A stretch of DNA of 64,000 nt from Patescibacteria group bacterium (GCA_023484045.1 JAMDAA010000015.1:8659-72658), one strand, 5' to 3'. Shown: positions 5,182 to 63,340, numbered from the stretch's first letter. Made by a program: numbers and translations. The notes: a model not told the origin generated them from the letters alone.

Positions 5182-6984
5182 TTATTGGGGCAAACAATTA
5201 CAGCTTTTTTCTGATGTACAATCGGGGTTACGACACACGCTAGACCCTAAACCTTCTCCGGATACACAAGTTAAATTTCCATCACATTCATATCCGTTGC
5301 TGCCGCAAGTCTGGTTGCAGTAAGCAATTTTTGGTGTCGGAGTCGGAGCAGCTGTCGGTAAGGGCGTGGCAGTCGGCGTTGGTTGGGGAGTTGAAGTAGG
5401 CGCGGGACGACAATTCTGCTGACATTGGGTGAGCCCCGTGTTATTAAAAGGATAAGGAGGATTATTTTGTGTCGTAAGTTCACACGTATAAGATGATGTG
5501 TTGCATACATATCCTGTGTACGCAGGTCCGCCTCCACAGGAAAAAGGTGTTGACTGAGAAAAATTTGAAAAATTAGAATCATCACTGCAATTCATGCAGA
5601 GTGAATACGCGTATTGCGCGTAATACGATCTGTTGCCATCGATTTGCACCGTTATTTGGGGGTTGTTCGCCTGAATTTTACTATTATACATATCTGCAGT
5701 CGCCGCGCTTCTTCCGACCTGAATCCAATAATTACCCGCCGTTGATTGTCTGGGAAACGAAATAACCGCGTTATATTGGTTGTTTCCAAGACTATTACAT
5801 GCGTTTACAATAACATTTCCGCTCGGAGTGGGAATAAATACGCCGGTATTAAGAGTAAAATTAATATTTTGGGCGGGGACTGTAATAATTTGGGATTGTG
5901 TCGATGCAGTATTTTGTTGATTAACTTGCAAAACTCCTGTTATTTCGTACTGTTTTCCGACTGTTAAATTATTCCAGCTCCATGGTTGGCCATTGTGTGA
6001 AGGGTTATTAATACGGGTAATAACATTATAATTTTGGTTTCCGGGCAACCTCCATAACATAAGCAAGCTCGTATTTTCCTGTTCCGGTCCGTTAATAAAT
6101 ACTGTTCCAGTAATGTTTCCTGTTGTTTGTTGGGGAACAGGAGTAGGATTATTAGGAGAGGGAGATACAGGAGGATTAGCGGGCGGAACGGCTGTAGAAT
6201 TGAGGATAAAATCGATTTTACTATCTCCTCCGGCCGCAGTCACAGTCTCACTTGTCGCGAGTGTGATTACTCCCTGCATCAAAACCGCTTTGATCATATA
6301 ATCTTTTAACGGTACTGTTTTGTCCCATTTCCATCCGTTTTTTTGGCCGGCATTTGTTGTCGTTACGACTGTTTGAAAATCCTGATCGGTCGGTAATCTT
6401 GCCTGAATAAAAAGCGTGTTTTGTGGAGGGATATATCCGTTTATCGTAACAGTGCCCTTAATATAAGTTGTTTGTTCTATAACGACAGATTCAGGTAAAT
6501 CGTGCCAGGTCACGTGTAGATTTAGCTCTTGATTCGCGGCAGGCGCGGTAACGATAAGCGGTTCTGATGTTGTAACCAATTTTCCGTCGACTTGTAAACT
6601 TGCGATCATCTCATACGGCTGTCCAGAAACAGCGTCATTCCACGCCCATGGAGATTTTTCCGCCAAACCAGACGCGTATACAATAATATAATCTCCCGTA
6701 CTTTTATATTTGCGGTATTTTATTTGTACCTGCCCTCTGTCTCCCGGGTCGGGTTTTAATGCAGTGTAGTTAATGACTCCCGCGATCGTCGCGGCGCGGG
6801 ATTTACCGGTCAGGAAAAAAAGCAAAATAAATAAAACGATCAGTGCTCCGATTCCTGCGGCGATATATATAAACAATTTTGATTTTAGAAATGCAATTTT
6901 TTCTTGAGAGGGTGGATTTTCGATGCCTTGAGGAGGTAAACTTGGAGTACTTTGATTGTTTTGATTTTGAATTACCTGGCCCAT
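5182..6984 (-). CDS. Large surface protein: N-in TM anchor, three tandem ~100-aa repeats, Pro/Thr linker, Cys-rich C-terminal module
   Basis: Three repeats share W-x-W-[ND] ... G-[QK]-x-Y-[EM]-I ... L-Q-V (SPWAWND..QPYEMIASLQV / NGWKWDK..KDYMIKAVLMQ / QPWSWNN..KQYEITGVLQV). The C-terminus has more than 15 Cys (CNQTCGSNGYECDGNLTCVSGEG..CRNPDCTSEKSCNC). Confidence 0.6.
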   Translation of the reverse strand: MGQVIQNQNNQSTPSLPPQGIENPPSQEKIAFLKSKLFIYIAAGIGALIVLFILLFFLTGKSRAATIAGVINYTALKPDPGDRGQVQIKYRKYKSTGDYIIVYASGLAEKSPWAWNDAVSGQPYEMIASLQVDGKLVTTSEPLIVTAPAANQELNLHVTWHDLPESVVIEQTTYIKGTVTINGYIPPQNTLFIQARLPTDQDFQTVVTTTNAGQKNGWKWDKTVPLKDYMIKAVLMQGVITLATSETVTAAGGDSKIDFILNSTAVPPANPPVSPSPNNPTPVPQQTTGNITGTVFINGPEQENTSLLMLWRLPGNQNYNVITRINNPSHNGQPWSWNNLTVGKQYEITGVLQVNQQNTASTQSQIITVPAQNINFTLNTGVFIPTPSGNVIVNACNSLGNNQYNAVISFPRQSTAGNYWIQVGRSAATADMYNSKIQANNPQITVQIDGNRSYYAQYAYSLCMNCSDDSNFSNFSQSTPFSCGGGPAYTGYVCNTSSYTCELTTQNNPPYPFNNTGLTQCQQNCRPAPTSTPQPTPTATPLPTAAPTPTPKIAYCNQTCGSNGYECDGNLTCVSGEGLGSSVCRNPDCTSEKSCNCLPQ

Positions 6985-7751: not shown

Positions 7752-8693
7752 GTGTTTAGTCGTCATTATTTAAAAGTTGATATTTGGTTTTTAAGATCCG
7801 CGTTGGCTTGGGTTTTGCTCGTTATCGCTTTATTGATGGTTCCGGTATCGGTAATTTTTTTCTGGTTAAGATTTACGATTTTAAATACCGATCAATTTGT
7901 CAAAACTTTAAGCCCGATCAGTAAAAATGTCTACATTATAGGATCTTTGTCTAATAATTTAAGTAAAAATTTTTTTCAGAATATCGACGCTGAAGGAAAA
8001 ATCAGAGAAGCTCTTCCCGATAAGGCTAAATTTTTAGCCCCGGTATTAACGTTGGAACTTAAAGGCTTTGTCGCAGAGGAAAGCAGGGTTATTTTGACGT
8101 CAAACGCTTTTAATAATGTTTGGACGAAAGTGTTAAAGACTGTTCACCCTAAAATTATTAATATTCTAACCGGCCGGGGGGATTTGAACGTTAATAATCA
8201 AGGAGAAGTAGTTTTGGATTTCTCAGATGCTGTTAGCAGGCTTCAAAAAACCCTTAATAATAAAGGGGTCACAATTTTTAACAATATTTCGATCGAACCG
8301 CAAGTGACTCTTTTTAAATCGGGGAAATTAGCCTATTTTAAAAGCATTCTTAATTTTATTTCTGTTCTCGGGATCGCTTTGCCTGTAATAGGGGTTTTAT
8401 TAATCATCGGCGCAATTTTTTCTTCTCTGAAACGTCTACAGTTTCTGTTTTGGGTTGGTATCGGGATATTAGTTTTTTCAGCGATTCTATTTTTTATAAT
8501 TCAAATCGGAGAAAGTTATTTTGTGAAAATGACAGGAGAGATCGACGCTAAAGCTGCAGGGGCGTTATATCAGATATTGACAGATTCTCTTAAAAAACTG
8601 TCGATCGAAATTAGTATTTCCGGTTTAATTATCGCCTTAGCTTCAAAATTTCTACCAAACAACCGGTTTATAAAAAGGTACTTGACAAAGTAA
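7752..8693 (+). CDS. Membrane protein (N-terminal TM, large extracytoplasmic region, C-terminal TMs), unknown
   Basis: 313-aa ORF co-oriented with its neighbours. No recognisable motif. Confidence 0.5.
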   Translation: MFSRHYLKVDIWFLRSALAWVLLVIALLMVPVSVIFFWLRFTILNTDQFVKTLSPISKNVYIIGSLSNNLSKNFFQNIDAEGKIREALPDKAKFLAPVLTLELKGFVAEESRVILTSNAFNNVWTKVLKTVHPKIINILTGRGDLNVNNQGEVVLDFSDAVSRLQKTLNNKGVTIFNNISIEPQVTLFKSGKLAYFKSILNFISVLGIALPVIGVLLIIGAIFSSLKRLQFLFWVGIGILVFSAILFFIIQIGESYFVKMTGEIDAKAAGALYQILTDSLKKLSIEISISGLIIALASKFLPNNRFIKRYLTK

Positions 8694-19611: not shown

Positions 19612-19686
19612 GGGCTCCGCAGCTAGGATTCGAACCTAGAACCTTGAAATTAACAGTTTCCTGCTCTACCGTTGAGCTACTGCGGA
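19612..19686 (-). tRNA. tRNA-Asn (anticodon GUU)
   Basis: Hand-folded on the minus strand: acceptor TCCGCAG/CTGCGGA, D-arm GCTC-AACGGTA-GAGC, anticodon loop CU-GUU-AA, T-arm CTAGG-TTCGAAT-CCTAG, discriminator G. No encoded CCA. Confidence 0.7.
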
Positions 19687-19831: not shown

Positions 19832-19860
19832 CCCTGCGAGACGCAGGGTTTTAAAGTTTT
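19832..19860 (+). terminator. Intrinsic-terminator-like hairpin (CCCTGCG-AGA-CGCAGGG + TTTTAAAGTTTT) abutting the start codon of 19861
   Basis: Perfect 7-bp GC-rich stem, 3-nt loop, then a T-rich tract. It lies between a putative promoter (TTGACT-18 nt-TATATT at about 19778) and the ATG at 19861. Confidence 0.4.
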
Positions 19861-21936: not shown

Positions 21937-23293
21937 AAAGATTAATTCGATTTGTAACTCCTTCTGCTTTTACGGGAAAACTCTCCAATAACTTACAAGA
22001 TTTTAAAACCAAGTCTTTGTTAAAGATTTCGTCGATAACCTTTTCCTCAATACTTATTTGAGGATAAGATACTCCGTGAGAAATAATAATCGTCTTTTTT
22101 TGAACCGCTTTTTTTGTCAAAAATTCTTTGTCTAAAATTTTTTTGGTAAAAAAATATTCATGGGCATCTGTAACGCCTTGAAGAGGGGGGATTTTAGTAA
22201 CGTACAAAAGCGCAGGCGTTATATCATTGACACCGTATAAATAGTCGGGATTTTCCTTTCGAATCAATTGCACGATTTTTTCAAAATTTTCGACTTTTTG
22301 TAGATTTCTGTAACCGGAGAAATAAACAGAAATATTTATAAGAATAAAAATAGACACAATAAAAAGAATAATCGGTCTTTTAAAATTAAGCTTTTTTGTT
22401 AAAAAATTATAAAATTCGTAAAAAGAAAGACAAAGAAAAGGGACTAAAAAATTAAGATATAAATAATACACGTCCTGAAAACCGAAGAAAAAAATAATGG
22501 AAGAAATTGAGACTAACGCAAAAAAAGTACTTTTTCTAATATCCAGAAGATTAAATATCAATATCATAAAAAGTAGAAAATCCTTACTTATAAAAAACCA
22601 CGCAACCTCGTTTTTCATAATTCCGGAAGGTCGGGAAAGTGAAAATCCAAAAATATCTCCAAAAAATTCCTTCGGTGCAAAGATTAAAAATGGGAGAACG
22701 ACGATAAAACCAGTTACTATAAAAGCGATGGAAAAGTTAAATATTTTTTTGTAATTTTTCTGTAAAATTAGGTAAACGAAAAAAGAGAAAGCGATTGGAA
22801 TATAATATGCTTTGGTAAGAAATGATAAGGCCATAAATACTCCGGATAAAAAATATTTTTTCTCCTGAAGAAACAAAAAACCTAGCACTGCAAATAGTGA
22901 GGCGGTAAAAACTCCTGTTTGATGATCAGATGTAGACAGGACAATAAAAGAAAAAATGTAAAGCGCAGAGCTTGTTAATGAAAGAAGAATATCCTTTGTT
23001 TTTTTATAAGTTATAAAATAAATAAGAGTAGTTATAATCATTACTTCGATTGCGGATGTAATATAAAAAATTTCGATATTTTTATTAGTCAATAAATAAT
23101 ACAAAGAGGATATATAAGAGAAAAAGGGAAAATTTGAAAAGAAAATATCTCTGTAAAGCAATTTTCCCTGGAATATTTGATAAACATCATTAAAATAAAT
23201 ATTTGTGTCGGAAAGACGAACGCCAATGTTTAAAACTTTTATAACGAAAAAAAATCCTAAAAAGCCGATAAGAGGAACGAGGCCTTTCTTCAT
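21923..23293 (-). CDS. GT-C fold glycosyltransferase-like membrane protein (PMT_2/ArnT-like)
   Basis: Multi-TM. First loop 'YFNDVYQIFQGKLLYRDIF' is paralogous to 'YGDEGIYQVVGMGINNNRLLYRDIW' of 54212..55669. Soluble C-terminal domain. Confidence 0.55.
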   Translation of the reverse strand: MKKGLVPLIGFLGFFFVIKVLNIGVRLSDTNIYFNDVYQIFQGKLLYRDIFFSNFPFFSYISSLYYLLTNKNIEIFYITSAIEVMIITTLIYFITYKKTKDILLSLTSSALYIFSFIVLSTSDHQTGVFTASLFAVLGFLFLQEKKYFLSGVFMALSFLTKAYYIPIAFSFFVYLILQKNYKKIFNFSIAFIVTGFIVVLPFLIFAPKEFFGDIFGFSLSRPSGIMKNEVAWFFISKDFLLFMILIFNLLDIRKSTFFALVSISSIIFFFGFQDVYYLYLNFLVPFLCLSFYEFYNFLTKKLNFKRPIILFIVSIFILINISVYFSGYRNLQKVENFEKIVQLIRKENPDYLYGVNDITPALLYVTKIPPLQGVTDAHEYFFTKKILDKEFLTKKAVQKKTIIISHGVSYPQISIEEKVIDEIFNKDLVLKSCKLLESFPVKAEGVTNRINLFKCY

Positions 23294-24342
23294 TTTTTGA
23301 TTTTTAGAATTAACCAGCGAAGTTTATCTGCGATTTTATAAAATTGATAAGTAAAAGGTTTAATCACTAGGTCATAGCTTCCGACGAATTCGACGAGTCT
23401 TGGTCCGTATCCCTGTTTAAAACGGTGAAACCCAAACCATGGATCATTTGCGTCCGGGTTTGGTCCTAAAGATCCCCACATATCAAATTTTTTAAGTCCC
23501 ATTTTTTTACCAAATTTTATTACTTCCCACATCATTAAATTAGATGCCATAACTTCCCGGTTTTCACTCGACGACGCGCCGTATGGATAATATAAGGTAT
23601 CATGAAAAATAAAAACAATCCAGGCGGCGAGAATTTTTGAATTATATTTTGCCAAAAAAAGACGAGCAGTCAGTTTGTCTTCCGAAGGCTTGTCCTGAGT
23701 TTGTCGAAGAGTCTCCCACATTAACTTGTGATAATTTTCGTTATGGGCAAAAAATTTCTGCCTGCTTGTTGTTACTTTTGTGAGCCTTAGATATTCTTTA
23801 AACGCTTCTTCGGAATTATCTTCGATTATTTTGACATTATGTTTTTGAGCGACTCTAATGTTATAACGCGTTTTAGGATGCATATTTTTTAAAAGTTCAT
23901 CCTCTGATTTTGTTAAATCGAGCTGAAAAGTATATTTGGTAAATAAGGGATGAGCAGAAGGCCTAAGGCCTAAATTTACAATTTTTAATTTACTCGCCTC
24001 GCTTCGCGGGCGAAGCGGGCAATTTTTAATATTGTCGACGTTTGGCTCGAGTTGGATAAATATACAATTTTCCTCTTTCCCGATTCTTTTAAGTTCATCG
24101 AGAATTTCTTTATCCGGTAATTCTCCCTTTGGAAAATAGCCGATTGTCAGGTTTGTTTTTGGAGTCTTATGAACAGTCAGCTGGAAGCCCGATTTTAATT
24201 TATTTTTTTCATAAAATCCTTTTCTTATTACTTTAAGACCTGTTTTTTCCCGAAATTTTCCCCATTCAAAAGACTGAAGGGGATGGGTCACGATTTTATT
24301 AAATTCTTTTTTTTCTTTTTCGGTTATATTTATTATTTTCAT
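23290..24342 (-). CDS. FemAB-family peptidoglycan interpeptide-bridge peptidyltransferase-like protein
   Basis: 'THPLQSFEWGKFREKTG' matches the FemX/FemAB N-terminal 'FLQS.EWGE.K' motif. About 350 aa, typical for the family. Confidence 0.7.
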   Translation of the reverse strand: MKIINITEKEKKEFNKIVTHPLQSFEWGKFREKTGLKVIRKGFYEKNKLKSGFQLTVHKTPKTNLTIGYFPKGELPDKEILDELKRIGKEENCIFIQLEPNVDNIKNCPLRPRSEASKLKIVNLGLRPSAHPLFTKYTFQLDLTKSEDELLKNMHPKTRYNIRVAQKHNVKIIEDNSEEAFKEYLRLTKVTTSRQKFFAHNENYHKLMWETLRQTQDKPSEDKLTARLFLAKYNSKILAAWIVFIFHDTLYYPYGASSSENREVMASNLMMWEVIKFGKKMGLKKFDMWGSLGPNPDANDPWFGFHRFKQGYGPRLVEFVGSYDLVIKPFTYQFYKIADKLRWLILKIKK

Positions 24343-26232: not shown

Positions 26233-26904
26233 ATGAAAAAACTTTTCATAATTGCTAATTGGAAATCAAATAAAACAGAACATGAATCCATAAAATGGAT
26301 TCAAGAATTTCCAATTTCCTCCCGCTCAGCGGGACAATTTCCAAACAATAAAGAAATAATAATATGTCCTTCTTTTGTTTATCTCCCGCTTCTTAAATCA
26401 TATATCCTAGATCATAATTTACCGATAAAATTGGGGACACAGAATATTTCGAAATTTGACGAAGGTGCTTATACGGGCGAAATTAACGGAAAACAAATAA
26501 AAGACTTTGCCGATTACGTGATTATCGGTCATTCGGAAAGAAGACAAAATTTTTCCGAAAGTGAGGAGACGATTAATAAAAAAATCGAGCAGGCAAAAAA
26601 ATACAGACTAACGCCGATTCTCTGTGTCCAAAATCCAGATTTTAGAATTTCACAAAAGATAGAAATTATTGCTTACGAACCGGTTTTCGCAATCGGTACA
26701 AACTATCCGGACACGCCGGAAAATGCGAGTCTTGTCTCAGCTGAAATTAAGAAAAATAGTTTATCAAATCATGTTGTTTATGGAGGCAGCGTGACTTCGA
26801 AAAATGTAAAAGAATTTACCCAAAAATCTAATATCGACGGAGTTTTAGTCGGCAATGCAAGCTTAGATCCTCTCGAGTTTTTCGAAATCATAAAAAATGC
26901 GTAA
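26233..26904 (+). CDS. tpiA: Triosephosphate isomerase
   Basis: 'IIANWKSNK', catalytic 'IIGHSERR' and 'AYEPVFAIGT'. The ORF-track start at 26122 overlaps pcrA. The ATG at 26233 (MKKLFII...) is the real start. Confidence 0.85.
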   Translation: MKKLFIIANWKSNKTEHESIKWIQEFPISSRSAGQFPNNKEIIICPSFVYLPLLKSYILDHNLPIKLGTQNISKFDEGAYTGEINGKQIKDFADYVIIGHSERRQNFSESEETINKKIEQAKKYRLTPILCVQNPDFRISQKIEIIAYEPVFAIGTNYPDTPENASLVSAEIKKNSLSNHVVYGGSVTSKNVKEFTQKSNIDGVLVGNASLDPLEFFEIIKNA

Positions 26905-42235: not shown

Positions 42236-44014
42236 ATGGAACAAAATATCAGAAATTTTGCGATCGTGGCGCATATCGATCACGGTAAATCAACTCTAGC
42301 AGACAGGTTTTTGGAGATCACAAAAACTGTCTCTAAAGAAAAAATAATAAATCAATTTTTAGACCAAAATCCGATAAGCAGAGAACGCGGAATCACGATA
42401 AAGCTCGCGCCGGTTCGGATGAACTATGAATATAATGGCGTTAATTATATCCTAAATCTGATCGACACTCCCGGTCATGTTGATTTCTCTTACGAGGTGT
42501 CGCGAACCCTCGCGTGTTGTGAGGGCGTAATTCTATTGGTCGACGCAACGCAGGGGATTCAGGCTCAGACCGTTGCCCATTTCAATGCGGCAAAAAAACA
42601 AAATCTCGTTATAATCCCGGTTATAAATAAAATAGACATGCCAAACGCCCAAAGCAAAATCGTGGCAAAGGCGATGTGCAATATTTTTGGATTTAATGAA
42701 GAAGAGATTTTATATATTTCTGCAAAAACAGGAGAAAACACAGGCATTGTTTTAAAAAAAGTCGTTGAAAAAATTCCTGCACCAACGGGTAACAAAAATT
42801 TATCGCTTCGGGCGCTTGTTTTTGATGCGGTTTACGACGAACACAGGGGGGTTATCGCTTTTGTCCGGATCGTTGACGGGAATATAAAACATAGAGAAAA
42901 AATAAAACTTATTCAGGAAGAAACTTTAACCCAAGGGACGGAGGTTGGTTATTTCTCTCCTTTTCTCTCTCCGTCAGCCGAACTCAAAACAGGAGAGATA
43001 GGATATATAATAACAGGCGTAAAAGACATTCATGAATGTCGGGTCGGGGATACGATTACGAATTCAGAATTCCCCAGCCTCGCCAAGCGAAGCGGGGCGG
43101 GCAAAATTCAGAATTCAAAATTTGAAAAAGTAGAACCGTTGCCAGGTTACGAACCACCTAAACCCATGGTTTTCTTCGGTGTTTATCCTAAAAATCCCGA
43201 TGACTTTGTTCGTCTTAAAGAAGGATTGTCAAGACTTACTCTCAAAGATGCCTCACTCACTTTTTCCGAAGATTACTCATCTTTTTTAGGAAGCGGATTC
43301 AGAGTCGGTTTTTTAGGACTGCTGCATGCAGAGATTATTAAAGAAAGGCTGAAAAGGGAAGAAAAAGTCGAGCCGCTTTTAACTATCCCGCAAGTTTTGT
43401 ATAAGAAAAATCCCGATGGCTCGATGCTTGAGCCATATATTAGTTTATTGATTTATTCTCCGGTCGATTTTATCGGAAATATTATGTCTCTCTGCCAAAG
43501 AAGAAAAGGTAAGCTTATTAACACTTTATACCATGATACGTACGCGGTTTTGGAGTATGAACTACCGTATAGTATGTTTATAAGAGGGTTGTCATCGGAA
43601 TTAAAATCTGCATCTTCGGGATTTGCGAGTGTCGATTATGAGTTTATCGGTTTTAGAAGCGCAAATTTAATAAATTTAGAGATTATAATCAATGATCATC
43701 CGATCGATGTTTTATCGGAATATGTTTATAAAGATGAGGTTATTTATAAGGCCCGGGAAAAAACAGAAAAATTAAAAGAATTATTACCAAGACAACAGTT
43801 TAGACAAATTATCCAAGGTGTTATTGATGGAAAAATTATTGCGAGAGAAGAAATTCCGCCGTTCAGAAAAGATGTTGTCGCAAAACTTTCCGGAGGAGAC
43901 AGAACAAGAAAAGATAAACTCCTAAAAAAACAAAAGAAAGGAAAGAGAAGGTTGGAAAATTATTCAAAAGTTAACTTACCACAAGAAGCCCTGCTTTCTT
44001 TTTTGGAGAAATAG
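42236..44014 (+). CDS. lepA: Elongation factor 4 (LepA)
   Basis: 'FAIVAHIDHGKSTLADR', 'NLIDTPGHVDFSYEVSR', 'NKIDMP'. LepA-specific C-terminal domain. Confidence 0.95.
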   Translation: MEQNIRNFAIVAHIDHGKSTLADRFLEITKTVSKEKIINQFLDQNPISRERGITIKLAPVRMNYEYNGVNYILNLIDTPGHVDFSYEVSRTLACCEGVILLVDATQGIQAQTVAHFNAAKKQNLVIIPVINKIDMPNAQSKIVAKAMCNIFGFNEEEILYISAKTGENTGIVLKKVVEKIPAPTGNKNLSLRALVFDAVYDEHRGVIAFVRIVDGNIKHREKIKLIQEETLTQGTEVGYFSPFLSPSAELKTGEIGYIITGVKDIHECRVGDTITNSEFPSLAKRSGAGKIQNSKFEKVEPLPGYEPPKPMVFFGVYPKNPDDFVRLKEGLSRLTLKDASLTFSEDYSSFLGSGFRVGFLGLLHAEIIKERLKREEKVEPLLTIPQVLYKKNPDGSMLEPYISLLIYSPVDFIGNIMSLCQRRKGKLINTLYHDTYAVLEYELPYSMFIRGLSSELKSASSGFASVDYEFIGFRSANLINLEIIINDHPIDVLSEYVYKDEVIYKAREKTEKLKELLPRQQFRQIIQGVIDGKIIAREEIPPFRKDVVAKLSGGDRTRKDKLLKKQKKGKRRLENYSKVNLPQEALLSFLEK

Positions 44015-45559: not shown

Positions 45560-46606
45560 ATGATTAAAAGGTTTTTTATCAGGAGAAATATTTTGATTGC
45601 CTTGGCATTTCTAGCAATTCTTTTTATTGGTTTTCGGGTGTATCCATCTTTTTCGAGCGCAGCCCGGGAGGAAACGATCGAAGTAAAAAGAGATACTATT
45701 ATGCAGAGAGTAACTGCTTCCGGAGAAATCAAATCCGAAGACGAAGTCGAGCTAAAATTTCCAGTGAGTGGGAAATTAGTTTATCTCGCAGTTGAAAAAA
45801 ATGAGCCGGTTAAAAAAGGAAGTTATATCGCCTCTTTAGACAAAGAAAAACTAGAAGCAAGCTTACGACAAGCCTGGCAAGATTTTACCGCTGCCAAAGC
45901 CGAATCCGAAAAAGTTTACGACGAACTTAAAAGAAAAGTAGACGAATCTTTTGACGAAAAAATAAGAAGGACAGCCGTAGATGCAAAACAGAATAAAGCC
46001 TATGACTCGATTAAAAAAGCAGAACAAGATTTAAAAGACGCCGATTTATACTCGCCGATTACAGGAGTTGTCACCAAAGTTTATGTTCAAGCGGGAACAG
46101 GAATTACCAATACCACTTCCATTGTCACGATCGCAAATCCGAATAACATGGTTTTTTTAGCAAGGGTAGGCGAATCGGATATTGGCGATGTTTCGATTGG
46201 TCAAGAAGCTTCGGTTGCCCTCGACGCTTTTGAAGGGAAAACGTTTAAAGGGCATGTTTCCGAAATCGACTATGCAGCAACAGTTAACGGCGGCAAAAGC
46301 TATCTTGTCAAAATTGTTTTAGAAGACCTTACTAAAGTAAAACTCGATATGAGCGGAGACGCAGAAATAATAACGGTTTCTCGTCCCGATGCCTTAATTA
46401 TTCCGCGAAGCGCAGTCCAAGAAAAAAACGGCCCCACTTCGCCAGGGCTTCGCGGGGCAAGCAAAAAATACGTCGAGATTTTGGAAGGAAAAAACACCAG
46501 ACAAAAGGAAATAACAACCGGCATAAAAGGTACCGGCGGAGTTGTCGAGATTCTTTCGGGACTTGATGTTTTTGAGAAAGTAATAGTTCCAAAACCTGCA
46601 AAATAG
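45560..46606 (+). CDS. Efflux periplasmic adaptor (HlyD/MacA family)
   Basis: N-terminal TM, biotinyl/lipoyl-like hairpins ('SGEIKSEDEVELKFPVSGKL', 'DLYSPITGVVTKVYVQAG'), long coiled coil. Confidence 0.75.
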   Translation: MIKRFFIRRNILIALAFLAILFIGFRVYPSFSSAAREETIEVKRDTIMQRVTASGEIKSEDEVELKFPVSGKLVYLAVEKNEPVKKGSYIASLDKEKLEASLRQAWQDFTAAKAESEKVYDELKRKVDESFDEKIRRTAVDAKQNKAYDSIKKAEQDLKDADLYSPITGVVTKVYVQAGTGITNTTSIVTIANPNNMVFLARVGESDIGDVSIGQEASVALDAFEGKTFKGHVSEIDYAATVNGGKSYLVKIVLEDLTKVKLDMSGDAEIITVSRPDALIIPRSAVQEKNGPTSPGLRGASKKYVEILEGKNTRQKEITTGIKGTGGVVEILSGLDVFEKVIVPKPAK

Positions 46607-47838: not shown

Positions 47839-48549
47839 ATGGAAAAATCAAATCTCAAAACTCAAAGATCAAAAATAAACAATATAATTAAAGTAGAAAA
47901 TCTTAAAAAAATTTATCCCGGTAGAGTTCCAACACCAGCGTTAAAAGGTGTCTCTTTTGACGTGAAAGCGGGAGAATTTATCGCGATTATGGGGCGAAGT
48001 GGCTCTGGTAAATCAACCCTTCTTCACCAACTGGGGTTAATCGATACACCAACCGAAGGGCAAATTCTTATTAATGACACTGATGTTTTAAAACTTTCTG
48101 ATTCAGGAAAAACTTTATATCGTCTGCAAAACTTAGGCTATGTATTTCAGGAATACGCGTTAATCGCAGAACTAACAGCTTTAGAAAATGTGTATTTACC
48201 GGCATTTGCTTTGGGTGGAAACAATGATGGCTATAAAAAACGGGCCCAAGAAATGTTGGAAATTGTCGGCTTAGGCGAGCGGGTAGACCATTATCCCAAT
48301 GAACTCTCGGGCGGTGAACAACAAAGAGTCGCTATTGCCAGAGCGCTTATTAACAAACCCAAAATACTTTTTGCCGACGAGCCCTGTGCAAATCTTGACA
48401 GCGTTTCCTCAAAAGTCGTTTTAGAGTTATTCAAAAAACTGAATAAGGAGTTAGGACAAACTATTGTCATGGTCACACACGAACCGGAAGATGAGAAGTT
48501 TGTCGACAGAGTAATCTGGATGAGAGATGGGCTTTCGGAGTCCCCGTAA
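47839..48549 (+). CDS. ABC transporter ATP-binding protein (MacB/LolD type)
   Basis: Walker A 'GRSGSGKSTLL', signature 'LSGGEQQRVAIARAL', Walker B 'ILFADEP'. Confidence 0.9.
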   Translation: MEKSNLKTQRSKINNIIKVENLKKIYPGRVPTPALKGVSFDVKAGEFIAIMGRSGSGKSTLLHQLGLIDTPTEGQILINDTDVLKLSDSGKTLYRLQNLGYVFQEYALIAELTALENVYLPAFALGGNNDGYKKRAQEMLEIVGLGERVDHYPNELSGGEQQRVAIARALINKPKILFADEPCANLDSVSSKVVLELFKKLNKELGQTIVMVTHEPEDEKFVDRVIWMRDGLSESP

Positions 48550-48989: not shown

Positions 48990-49043
48990 CGTCTAGGAAT
49001 TAGCGTTCAGTGACTAGTTTTAATAACTAAACGCTAGACGCTA
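48987..49043 (+). other. groES-groEL intercistronic imperfect hairpin (TAGCGTCTAG..TAGCGTT / AACGCTAGACGCTA)
   Basis: The 10-bp perfect inverted repeat TAGCGTCTAG/CTAGACGCTA plus an inner 7-bp repeat starts at the groES stop codon. Confidence 0.4.
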
Positions 49044-49058
49044 AAAACTAAAAGCTAA

Positions 49059-50717
<1,659 letters not shown>

Positions 50718-50757
50718 AAAAGATCAAAAATCAAACCTCAAAAATCAAAACTGATAA

Positions 50758-52799: not shown

Positions 52800-53868
52800 C
52801 TTTCTCCAAACTAAGATGTAAAAAAAGCAATAGTCCTCCGACGAGTACGATTAACATTAATATTGTAAAAATTTTCCCCTGGCTCGTTAAGCTCAGAGAA
52901 ATCGTTCCTAATATAGCAGAAATAACCCAGTAAAACAACGCGATCTGTCTTTGCCCAAAGCCTAAACTTAAAAGAATGTGATGAAGATGTTTATTATCGT
53001 GCCAGAAAGGTGATTTGCCGGAAAAAATTCTTCGAAGAATTGTGAATACCCCGTCGATCATCGGGATTCCCATAACAAGAATTGCCGTCGCGAGTTTTGC
53101 GCCGGATAGCATCGACGTTGCGGCCAAAAGTAGGTATAAAGAAGTAGCGCCATACCCAGGGAAAATTTTTGCAGGATAAAAATTAAAAATTAAAAAACCT
53201 AAACTAGCGCCTGCGATCGCAAAAGACAGGTTTGCCGAGATAAAGGTATCTTGTTCTGATATCGGAAAACGCAAACTTAAGATTCCGATCACGATCGCCG
53301 AGATTGCGACGATTCCGGGCATTTGTCCATCCACTCCTTTACTCCAATTTAACATGTTCATAACCCACGTGATCCAAAAAAGAGCGATTATATCGGCGAG
53401 CGATATCGTTAGACTCGCTCCTAAAAAAGACAGTGTCGTGTTTATCGAATCGAAATGAAGAATTCCGCCCGCAGGATTTGTTATAAAAGGTATGGTTATG
53501 CCGCTTGCGACTACCATCAGAGAAACAGCGATGTTTACAAAAAATCTTAAATATGGAGACAGATCAAATTTATCGTCTAAAACACCGATGACAAGCGCAA
53601 TAAAAGATGCAGAAAACAAAATTAACGTAGTTTGATTTAATGGGAGGAATATTATTCCGGCGACAAGAACTCCGAAAAAAAGCGGGATGCCACCGCCTCT
53701 TGGAATCGGTTTTTTATGAATAACGCCCGGATGTTTGTGTGTTTTTGGGTCGTCGACGATATTTAATTTTTTAAGAAAATAAATACAAATTGGCGTTATG
53801 AATACGGTTACGAAAAAAGCGACTAATAACGGTAGCACAAGAGAAAGATTATTACCGACGATTTGCAT
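52780..53868 (-). CDS. Polyprenyl-phosphate N-acetylhexosamine-1-phosphate transferase (WecA/MraY family)
   Basis: 'NIVDDPKTHKHPGVIHKKPIPRGGG', 'GVLDDKFDLSP', 'HLHHIL' (carbohydrate-recognition and HHH motifs of PNPT enzymes). Confidence 0.8.
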   Translation of the reverse strand: MQIVGNNLSLVLPLLVAFFVTVFITPICIYFLKKLNIVDDPKTHKHPGVIHKKPIPRGGGIPLFFGVLVAGIIFLPLNQTTLILFSASFIALVIGVLDDKFDLSPYLRFFVNIAVSLMVVASGITIPFITNPAGGILHFDSINTTLSFLGASLTISLADIIALFWITWVMNMLNWSKGVDGQMPGIVAISAIVIGILSLRFPISEQDTFISANLSFAIAGASLGFLIFNFYPAKIFPGYGATSLYLLLAATSMLSGAKLATAILVMGIPMIDGVFTILRRIFSGKSPFWHDNKHLHHILLSLGFGQRQIALFYWVISAILGTISLSLTSQGKIFTILMLIVLVGGLLLFLHLSLEKDEKEII

Positions 53869-63322: not shown

Positions 63323-63340
63323 GCCCCAATAAATTGGGGC
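63323..63340 (+). terminator. GC-rich perfect palindrome GCCCCAATAAATTGGGGC after the HD gene (terminator-like or protein-binding)
   Basis: Seen directly. Not followed by a T-run (TTGACAAG follows), so it is not a canonical intrinsic terminator. Confidence 0.35.

Follow-up and report, generated by a model that had tools for sequence, protein, structure and literature searches.

A GC-rich palindrome in a patescibacterial tpiA gene as a probable decayed member of a family of 21/27-nucleotide dispersed repeats

What is the origin of a short GC-rich palindrome that lies, between AT-rich flanks, inside a gene for a housekeeping enzyme? The question is raised by the triosephosphate isomerase gene (tpiA) in a 64-kb stretch of DNA (hereafter, the window; JAMDAA010000015.1:8659-72658 of assembly GCA_023484045.1; 35.7% GC) from a member of the Patescibacteria (candidate phyla radiation, CPR) that is Levybacteria-like, Levybacteria being the best named relatives for the LepA and TpiA proteins encoded in it, both of which are 100% identical to proteins of a "Patescibacteria group bacterium" assembly. 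An initial annotation of this DNA took the palindrome for the prototype of a recurring coding-tolerant element, inserted with an in-frame 24-nt period between repeats that resemble target-site duplications. We conclude instead, with a probability of roughly 0.7, that it derives, in decayed form, from a family of tiny, dyad-symmetric, GC-rich dispersed repeats which are copied by exact insertion without target-site duplication. The feature is real, and it provides new hosts and an in-frame habit for a kind of element with a known small-repeat precedent.

The tpiA palindrome and its probable relatives

The tpiA site consists of the following features, the repeats and the palindrome being read directly from the sequence:

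26233..26904, + strand: tpiA (triosephosphate isomerase), the host gene; product 100% identical to P0121; Pfam family TIM
26306..26312 and 26313..26319, + strand: left "direct repeat", two tandem AATTTCC heptamers
26320..26334, no strand: 15-nt perfect GC-rich palindrome TCCCGCTCAGCGGGA; encodes ...EFPISSRSAGQFPNNKE
26336..26342, + strand: right "direct repeat", a third AATTTCC heptamer

The true start of tpiA is the ATG at 26233, in agreement with P0121; the mechanical open reading frame (ORF) from 26122 runs over a UvrD-like gene on the opposite strand. The order of the elements is GAATTTCC-AATTTCC-TCCCGCTCAGCGGGA-C-AATTTCC-AAAC, and the perfect palindrome is present as annotated. The 24-nt period is not: the two copies of CAATTTCC, at 26312-19 and 26335-42, are spaced by 23 nt, and the sole in-frame repeat at the site is AATTTCCAA (26306/26336), with a period of 30. 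Nor is the insert a clean addition of eight residues (ISSRSAGQ) to a loop, given that, against the closest relative found (contig JAMCZG010000054.1, loci L001 and L005, syntenic with the window; LepA 85% and TpiA 73% identical), the loop is replaced. In the AlphaFold2 model of the window TpiA (mean pLDDT 90), the insert falls in the stretch of lowest confidence, residues 21-40. This stretch is predicted to connect helix a1 (16-25) to strand b2 (40-45) on the side of the barrel that faces away from the active site. The palindrome folds into a stem of 6 bp (z = -3.7). GC-rich palindromes that are perfect and have 7-bp stems are scarce, numbering five in the window compared to 0.9 +/- 1.2 in first-order Markov simulations, and element sites account for two of the four distinct places that hold them.

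The cores in three other genes of the window, which had been listed as related to that of tpiA, share sequence with one another and belong to a single DNA family:

23993..24019, + strand: 27-nt copy CTCGCCTCGCTTCGCGGGCGAAGCGGG matching the family exactly, inverted and in frame in a FemAB-like gene (23290..24342, - strand); encodes PLRPRSEA
23973..23992, + strand: heptamers AATTTAC/AATTTTT/AATTTAC beside the femAB copy; right-hand partner AATTTTT AATATTG at 24021-24034
43073..43102, + strand: 30-nt variant copy CCCAGCCTCGCCAAGCGAAGCGGGGCGGGC in lepA (42236..44014, + strand); encodes PSLAKRSGAG
43060..43072, + strand: heptamers GAATTCA/GAATTC left of the lepA copy; right-hand partner of the CAAAATT type at 43103-43123
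46433..46462, - strand: 30-nt copy, from a second subfamily (minus-strand reading CTTGCCCCGCGAAGC-N4-GCGAAGTGGG), in an HlyD-like gene (45560..46606, + strand); encodes PTSPGLRGAS

The family has a 21-nt consensus, CTCGCCTCGC-N-GCGAAGCGGG, and also occurs in a 27-nt form with a variable 7-nt centre; the arms are 10 nt long and include two non-Watson-Crick positions, that is, the element is an imperfect palindrome. The lepA copy carries CCAGCCTCGCCAAGCGAAGCGGG, with two mismatches to the consensus, and the hlyD copy carries CTTGCCCCGCGAAGCCCTGGCGAAGTGGG on the minus strand, with three. The second subfamily, CTTGCCCCGCGAAGC-N4-GCGAAGTGGG, is also found on another contig (L199, 11585-11613); it encodes PTSPGLRGAS and related peptides. 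The weaker palindromes that had been proposed as further relatives, at 1955 and 6775, have no match to the family and do not recur among all the loci examined.

Scanning metagenome contigs with the pattern CTCGCCTCGC-N(0-8)-GCGAAGCGGG yields at least 120 loci. Of the matches listed, 88 are in contigs below 50% GC, mostly 31-50%, in which the chance expectation for 20 fixed GC-rich bases is negligible, and approximately 12 are in contigs above 60% GC, which by our own estimate is roughly the chance level. The 88 copies include 55 of 21 nt (with T, G or A at the centre), 21 of 27 nt (with TTCGCGG and its variants at the centre) and a few of other lengths. G occupies position -1 in 61% of the copies and C follows at position +1 in 53%, and the flanks are otherwise unrelated. 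Several metagenome loci contain 27-mers identical to the femAB copy. Orthologs of tpiA itself, recovered from other samples, are among the hosts: one (L131) carries the canonical 21-mer CTCGCCTCGCGGCGAAGCGGG, which encodes LASRRSG, another (L130) its reverse complement, which encodes PASQRGE, and two from independent assemblies (L006 and L007) carry TCGCCTGCCGGAGAAGCGGGA, a version with three mismatches that encodes SPAGEAG. The odd peptides in TpiA and LepA alignments (for example, SPAGEAG, PPAGEAG, LRGEAG, SPASPRGE, LASRRSG, SPRGEAG and SFAKASEGG) are one and the same sequence in different frames and orientations.

The family extends beyond the CPR to the class II ribonucleotide reductase (RNR) of a member of the Sedimentisphaerales (Planctomycetota; L238); AcrB and a type IX secretion (T9SS)-tail protein are among the further hosts. 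In viral contigs, the generic pattern CTCGCC-N(4-13)-GAAGCGGG gives only chance matches in GC-rich phages, and the strict pattern gives only three GC-rich matches in the viral collection; with viral scans nearly empty, there is no sign of a phage origin.

How does the tpiA palindrome relate to this family? Its core sits at the same position of an (AATTTCC)n array as the full 21-mer of the L130 tpiA, the two have the motif CCCGCT..CAGCG in common, and TC(A/G)GCGGG..CAA is common to the window core and the degenerate L128 copy. Because of this position and partial similarity, we read the tpiA core as a probable shortened, decayed derivative of the 21-nt family. It is hardly the prototype: the short perfect form occurs three times in the 672 kb examined, compared to the 21/27-mer at at least 120 loci. 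The palindrome could instead be a local product unrelated to the family, a small hairpin, GC-rich by coincidence, which arose when the (AATTTCC)n array slipped or underwent snap-back synthesis. The rarity of the perfect 15-nt form, which has no family match within three mismatches, and its location in a slippage-prone heptamer array are in line with such an origin, and slippage, which the initial annotation had offered as one explanation, does account for the heptamer flanks. It does not account for the core: AT-rich flanks cannot template a sequence of 73% GC. Moreover, a canonical 21-mer occupies the same array position in the L130 tpiA, degenerate intermediates are found in L128 and in P0151, P0163 and P0230, and three clear family copies (femAB, lepA, hlyD) reside within the same 64 kb. 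We consider a local origin unlikely.

Several other features of the window and of other contigs deserve mention. Peptides similar to PTSPGLRGAS (PSFAKASAGK, HFAEASRGKE) are found in other proteins of L199 and in the LepA P0024. The palindrome CCCGCGATCGTCGCGGCGCGGG (6779-6800, within an ORF at 5182..6984 on the - strand) follows a predicted membrane helix, is unique among the loci examined and does not belong to the family. Further perfect GC-rich palindromes are CCCTGCGAGACGCAGGG (19832-19848), which is close to a tRNA (19615-19686), and GCCCCAATAAATTGGGGC (63323-63340); both may be terminators.

Exact insertion without target duplication

Comparison of orthologs indicates that the family copies are lineage-specific insertions, as the alignments proposed in the initial annotation for TpiA, LepA and FemAB also bear out. 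Presence and absence of copies among orthologs are seen in the alignments of TpiA, LepA, FemAB and RNR, and protein alignments contain steps of +7 residues in the TpiA of L006 and L130. The closest relative lacks the tpiA and lepA inserts (L001), and its FemAB (L005) has a different short segment; the 27-mer is missing from the L006 ortholog. The lepA copy splits NSEF from KIQNSKF, which are contiguous and encoded by a heptamer array in orthologs; the same LepA loop holds canonical copies, SPRGEAG and LASRRSG, in P0093 and P0064.

Two pairs of filled and empty sites define the insertion to the nucleotide. In the tpiA loop that harbors the window palindrome, the empty site of L258, ...AACAATTTA|CCAGTAAC..., differs from the filled site of L131, ...AACAATTCA(CTCGCCTCGCGGCGAAGCGGG)CCAGTAAC..., by exactly 21 nt, without target duplication; both are from the CPR. 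In the RNR gene, the empty site of L257 is GAGACCTC|GCCTATAGG, and L238 has 57 additional nucleotides there between nearly identical flanks. This insert is a 27-mer nested in a degenerate outer copy, with only a 3-nt GCC ambiguity at the junction, and the site itself sits within an older palindromic insert that P0242 lacks. Copies within the loops of other copies are found in L192, L225 and L193 as well as in L238, and at about nine loci copies are centred in other GC-rich palindromes, for example, CCTGCCTG...CCGGCAGG. The 21/27-nt unit is thus copied and pasted without duplication, in both orientations and with a preference for arrays and loops as targets, and its composites move or accumulate.

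The repeats that bracket the cores have a different history. One tpiA ortholog (L252) contains GC(AATTTCC)3(AATTTTC), an array of the (AATTTCC)x4 type without a GC core, a lepA ortholog (L253) contains (AAATTCA)4AAATTCG, again with no core, and L001 has neither array nor core. With arrays present in core-less orthologs, the repeats pre-exist as heptamer arrays and are not target-site duplications. The arrays encode ISNFQFPISN in tpiA and NSKFKIQNS in lepA. Within approximately 600 kb of AT-rich loci, period-7 arrays number 133, compared to at most 78 for any other period, and among arrays of at least three copies the numbers are 89 and at most 14. The most frequent copy numbers of period-7 arrays are 4.3-4.9, as would be expected if coding sequence were under selection for steps of +21 nt (three units), which keep the reading frame.

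The association between family copies and arrays is significant: a period-7 array is no more than 25 nt away from 8 of 74 copies, compared to 3% expected (p = 0.0016). A direct repeat of at least 7 nt spans the core in only 20% of the copies and in 7% of the controls, with variable lengths; for 7 of the 16 copies that have such a repeat, its spacing is divisible by 7, which is what placing a 21-nt unit within a heptamer array should produce. At the position AATTTC^C, the L130 tpiA and a dprA-like gene (L169) hold copies of opposite orientation. Next to the femAB flank in the window, there is an (AAGGCCT)x2.3 array at 23958-23973.

These data bear on the possibility that the elements are classical miniature transposons of the MITE type with target-site duplications of 8-12 bp, an explanation that draws on the 8-12-nt direct repeats beside the tpiA, femAB and lepA cores and on the duplication-like flanks described in the initial annotation. 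The same repeats occur as heptamer arrays in core-less orthologs, 80% of the copies lack a flanking repeat of at least 7 nt, neither of the filled/empty pairs (+21 and +57 nt) contains a duplication, and apart from the palindrome itself there are no terminal inverted repeats. In addition, the repeat periods, 23 nt in tpiA, 41 in femAB and 44 in lepA, are out of frame, and duplications of this kind would shift the reading frame. The classical MITE was accordingly rejected as a model, and we regard it as highly improbable.

Other arrays and composites are worth recording. Period-7 arrays are located in the window at 47843-47876, 49027-49060, 50719-50750, 53177-53196 and 23958-23973, two of them flanking groEL; many such arrays are intragenic, and three units amount to +7 residues. 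In the FemAB ortholog of L006 (7280-7313), a (GAATTCT)x4.9 array encodes NSEFRIQ, as in the LepA loops of other lineages, and similar heptamer arrays therefore recur in unrelated genes. The C-terminal linker of the L238 RNR (2540-2700) contains three nested levels of in-frame GC-rich palindromic inserts, relative to L257 and P0242, and related RNRs range from 967 to 1107 residues. On a further contig (L149:5981-8533), two direct 21-mer copies (5981-6001 and 8513-8533) bracket an ORF of 741 residues; this ORF contains repeated LAGLIDADG-like motifs and has ftsZ on one side and a HicAB-like pair on the other.

Reading frame of the coding copies

Of 87 copies, 43 are in long ORFs, which is below the prediction from coding density (p ~2e-18 vs 88%) though a substantial number nonetheless. 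The hosts are diverse housekeeping genes, including those for TsaD, TopA, GatB, DnaA, LigA, GAPDH and aminoacyl-tRNA synthetases, and in no case does a copy interrupt the host ORF or shift its frame. Very small GC-rich palindromic inserts that recur as a family and are tolerated in frame in conserved genes, as the initial annotation surmised, do exist. Both common lengths are multiples of three and include no stop codon, and therefore copies in surface loops and linkers would be read through and translated as 7-10 extra residues.

The frames are not used evenly. Forward copies are in phase 2 (xSPRGEAG) in 19 of 27 cases and reverse copies in phase 0 (PASPRGE) in 10 of 16. Tabulating frames across the loci recovered by the core search, as had been suggested, gives a bias over the six classes of frame and orientation with p = 1.7e-5, at least five of the classes being used. 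Selection would retain mainly those frames that yield peptides rich in Ser, Pro, Gly and Glu, such as xSPRGEAG and PASPRGE. Relative to transcription, the orientations of the copies show no more than a mild skew (27:16, p = 0.13), which argues against a function at the RNA level.

Might the inserts escape translation altogether, being either excised from the mRNA or skipped by the ribosome in the manner of the mitochondrial byp elements of Magnusiomyces, which derive from GC clusters? GC-rich hairpins that are inserted between matching codons in AT-rich coding sequence do resemble byp (PMC8811140), and the NSEF..NSKF and FP..FP flanks could in principle be take-off and landing sites. A jump from repeat to repeat (23, 41 or 44 nt), in contrast, would leave the frame, the lengths of the inserts are multiples of three, the host ORFs stay open through every copy, and the strong frame bias implies that the peptides are exposed to selection. 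We give this explanation very little credence. Programmed bypass of the kind known from byp and T4 gene 60 was rejected as a candidate: it needs a gap that interrupts the frame, and all host ORFs are open and in frame.

Possible mobility, significance and known systems

We propose, conditionally, the following scenario for the spread of the family. The AT-rich heptanucleotide arrays, the dominant tandem repeat of these genomes, serve as over-used landing sites, and further copies enter the loops of existing palindromic copies to form nested composites. Nesting and the heptamer arrays together suggest that the targets are single-stranded, and integration may occur into transiently single-stranded DNA, such as hairpin loops and slipped repeats. 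It could be performed in trans by a hairpin-recognising single-stranded DNA enzyme of the REP/RAYT type (HUH tyrosine transposase) or, alternatively, might result from template switching or gene conversion during repair; we consider the two routes about equally likely.

A stricter regular expression for HUH/Tyr motifs finds no candidate in 2,405 open frames, and a looser one finds two ORFs similar to Y1 (IS200-like) transposases, both on element-bearing contigs:

L150, 1676-2608, + strand: RAYT-like gene, 76.6 bits against the model of REP-associated tyrosine transposases (cut-off 80), with a C-terminal DnaA helix-turn-helix
L201, 2108-2860, - strand: RAYT-like gene, 38.7 bits against the same model

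Several observations weigh against the scenario of mobile repeats and against the derivation of the tpiA core from them. The L201 gene is flanked by a different palindrome of its own, TTACGAGGTTCAACCTCGTAA, with the family copy about 700 nt away; no enzyme is linked to the family in the loci examined, and there is no transposase among 25 of the 89 Pfam families listed for the window. The consensus hairpins are within the range of shuffled GC-rich sequences (z = -1 to -2.4), so that a hairpin intermediate is only a proposal. The arms were set by the search pattern, and their conservation is partly due to the way the copies were collected. The copies are sparse, at about one in 10-20 kb. That Patescibacteria and Planctomycetota both contain near-identical copies fits poorly with vertical descent of a selfish element, and this identity across phyla might point to a conserved function. 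Finally, the link of the tpiA core to the family is one of position and partial similarity; descent from the L130 form takes several small deletions, and a small palindrome that arose independently is possible.

The conserved function could be that of a DNA or RNA signal, for protein binding, DNA uptake or recombination, accumulated by selection or by uptake-biased recombination, with the coding copies being tolerated side effects. The uptake sequences of Neisseria and Haemophilus provide an analogy, and CPR bacteria rely on DNA uptake. A near-identical sequence in contigs of 31-57% GC from two distant phyla, the use of both orientations and the frame bias of the coding copies are all compatible with a signal. 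Conversely, the low density speaks against it, whole-unit insertions and nesting are unlike a drive by point mutation, half-sites spaced by 1 or 7 nt are incompatible with a single site for a dimer on double-stranded DNA, and a scan of the window with Rfam at the gathering thresholds detects tRNA only, with no family match to the element. A functional signal is, in our assessment, a minority possibility, even less probable than a local origin of the tpiA palindrome.

Tentatively, and going further than the conclusion on tpiA, the 21/27-nt palindromes may be mobile DNA across distant phyla (Patescibacteria, Planctomycetota and possibly others) that enters single-stranded loops without duplication, remodels surface loops of essential proteins and represents the same phenomenon as the small dispersed repeats (SDR) of cyanobacteria. 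If mobile, they would rank with the smallest mobile DNA known and mark a lower size limit for it, at about 21 nt, with no coding capacity, terminal repeats or target duplication; and if the phenomenon is indeed shared with SDR, thousands of natural insertion events would be available for an enzyme co-occurrence search. The copies in the CPR and Planctomycetota, with many independent filled and empty sites, nested composites and a clear target preference, open the mechanism to comparative genomics. The inserts are also a source of variation in loop length in essential proteins (TpiA, LepA, DnaA, TopA, RNR and others) and a practical nuisance, causing spurious "motifs" such as SPRGEAG, inflated alignment gaps and, potentially, misled phylogenies of uncultivated bacteria. 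The flanking heptamer arrays are the dominant microsatellite of these genomes, within genes as well.

Among known systems, Rickettsia palindromic elements (RPE), to which the initial annotation had likened the tpiA insert, are about 100-150 bp long and are inserted in frame in unrelated metabolic genes, where they encode peptide segments compatible with the protein fold (PMC10969869). The in-frame insertion of a palindrome in unrelated housekeeping genes is common to both. However, RPE encode one conserved peptide and are confined to Rickettsia, whereas the elements described here are 21-30 nt long, use more than one frame as well as both orientations, and are equally frequent outside genes. 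The GC clusters of yeast mitochondria include in-frame insertions in var1, merge and shuffle into composites and have tandem arrays at their targets (PMC8811140). They share with the present family the short GC-rich palindromes in AT-rich genomes, the in-frame coding copies and the composites, but are organellar and usually 30-50 nt long, with AG/TAG terminal repeats that are taken as target duplications; junction repeats of this type are absent from the flank tabulation and the filled/empty pairs of our bacterial hosts. The byp elements differ in being bypassed in translation, whereas the elements here are in frame.

The best mechanistic analogy is REP/RAYT, from which the family nevertheless differs in several defining features. 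REPs and REPINs are likewise imperfect palindromes of about 20-40 nt; they are dispersed, non-autonomous elements for which insertion without duplication is expected, and RAYT-like genes are found on two of our element-bearing contigs. Unlike the present copies, about half of which lie in long ORFs, REPs are extragenic; they mostly form inverted doublets, of which we find one (L184), the other multi-copy loci being direct or nested; and they flank their cognate RAYT. Of the two RAYT-like genes here, the one with clear flanks (L201) carries another palindrome. The STRR of Calothrix and Nostoc resemble the heptamer arrays in that period 7 is the dominant class of microsatellite, but the arrays here are mostly in coding sequence and are landing sites for GC cores.

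The small dispersed repeats SDR1-8 of Nostoc and Anabaena, 21-27 nt long, are reportedly regarded as mobile in the work of Elhai et al. 2008 (Genome Res 18:1484), in which their nesting, their association with heptamer repeats and their lack of duplications are also said to be described. Elhai et al. 2008 is cited for SDRs in PMC5861425, PMC4390886 and PMC3116915. PMC4390886 has SDR5 inserted precisely between nucleotides 3 and 4 of HIP1, PMC5861425 reports SDRs in Nostocaceae only, and PMC4692102 describes heptanucleotide tandem repeats as abundant in cyanobacterial genomes and notes them for many bacteria. The initial annotation had raised the possibility of an undescribed family; this probably holds for the CPR and Planctomycetota, for which our literature searches returned no description, and not for the kind of element, given the close cyanobacterial precedent. 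The likeness consists in a 21/27-nt unit with many near-identical dispersed copies and no encoded protein, and in discrete insertion relative to orthologous loci, as in the +21-nt and +57-nt pairs. The differences are the phyla (Patescibacteria and Sedimentisphaerales versus cyanobacteria, the family being set beside SDR1-8 by description) and the location of approximately half of the copies in frame, with a frame bias, within housekeeping genes. By size, precision of insertion and heptamer-rich hosts, the SDRs of Nostocaceae appear to be the nearest precedent for the family to which the tpiA palindrome probably belongs.

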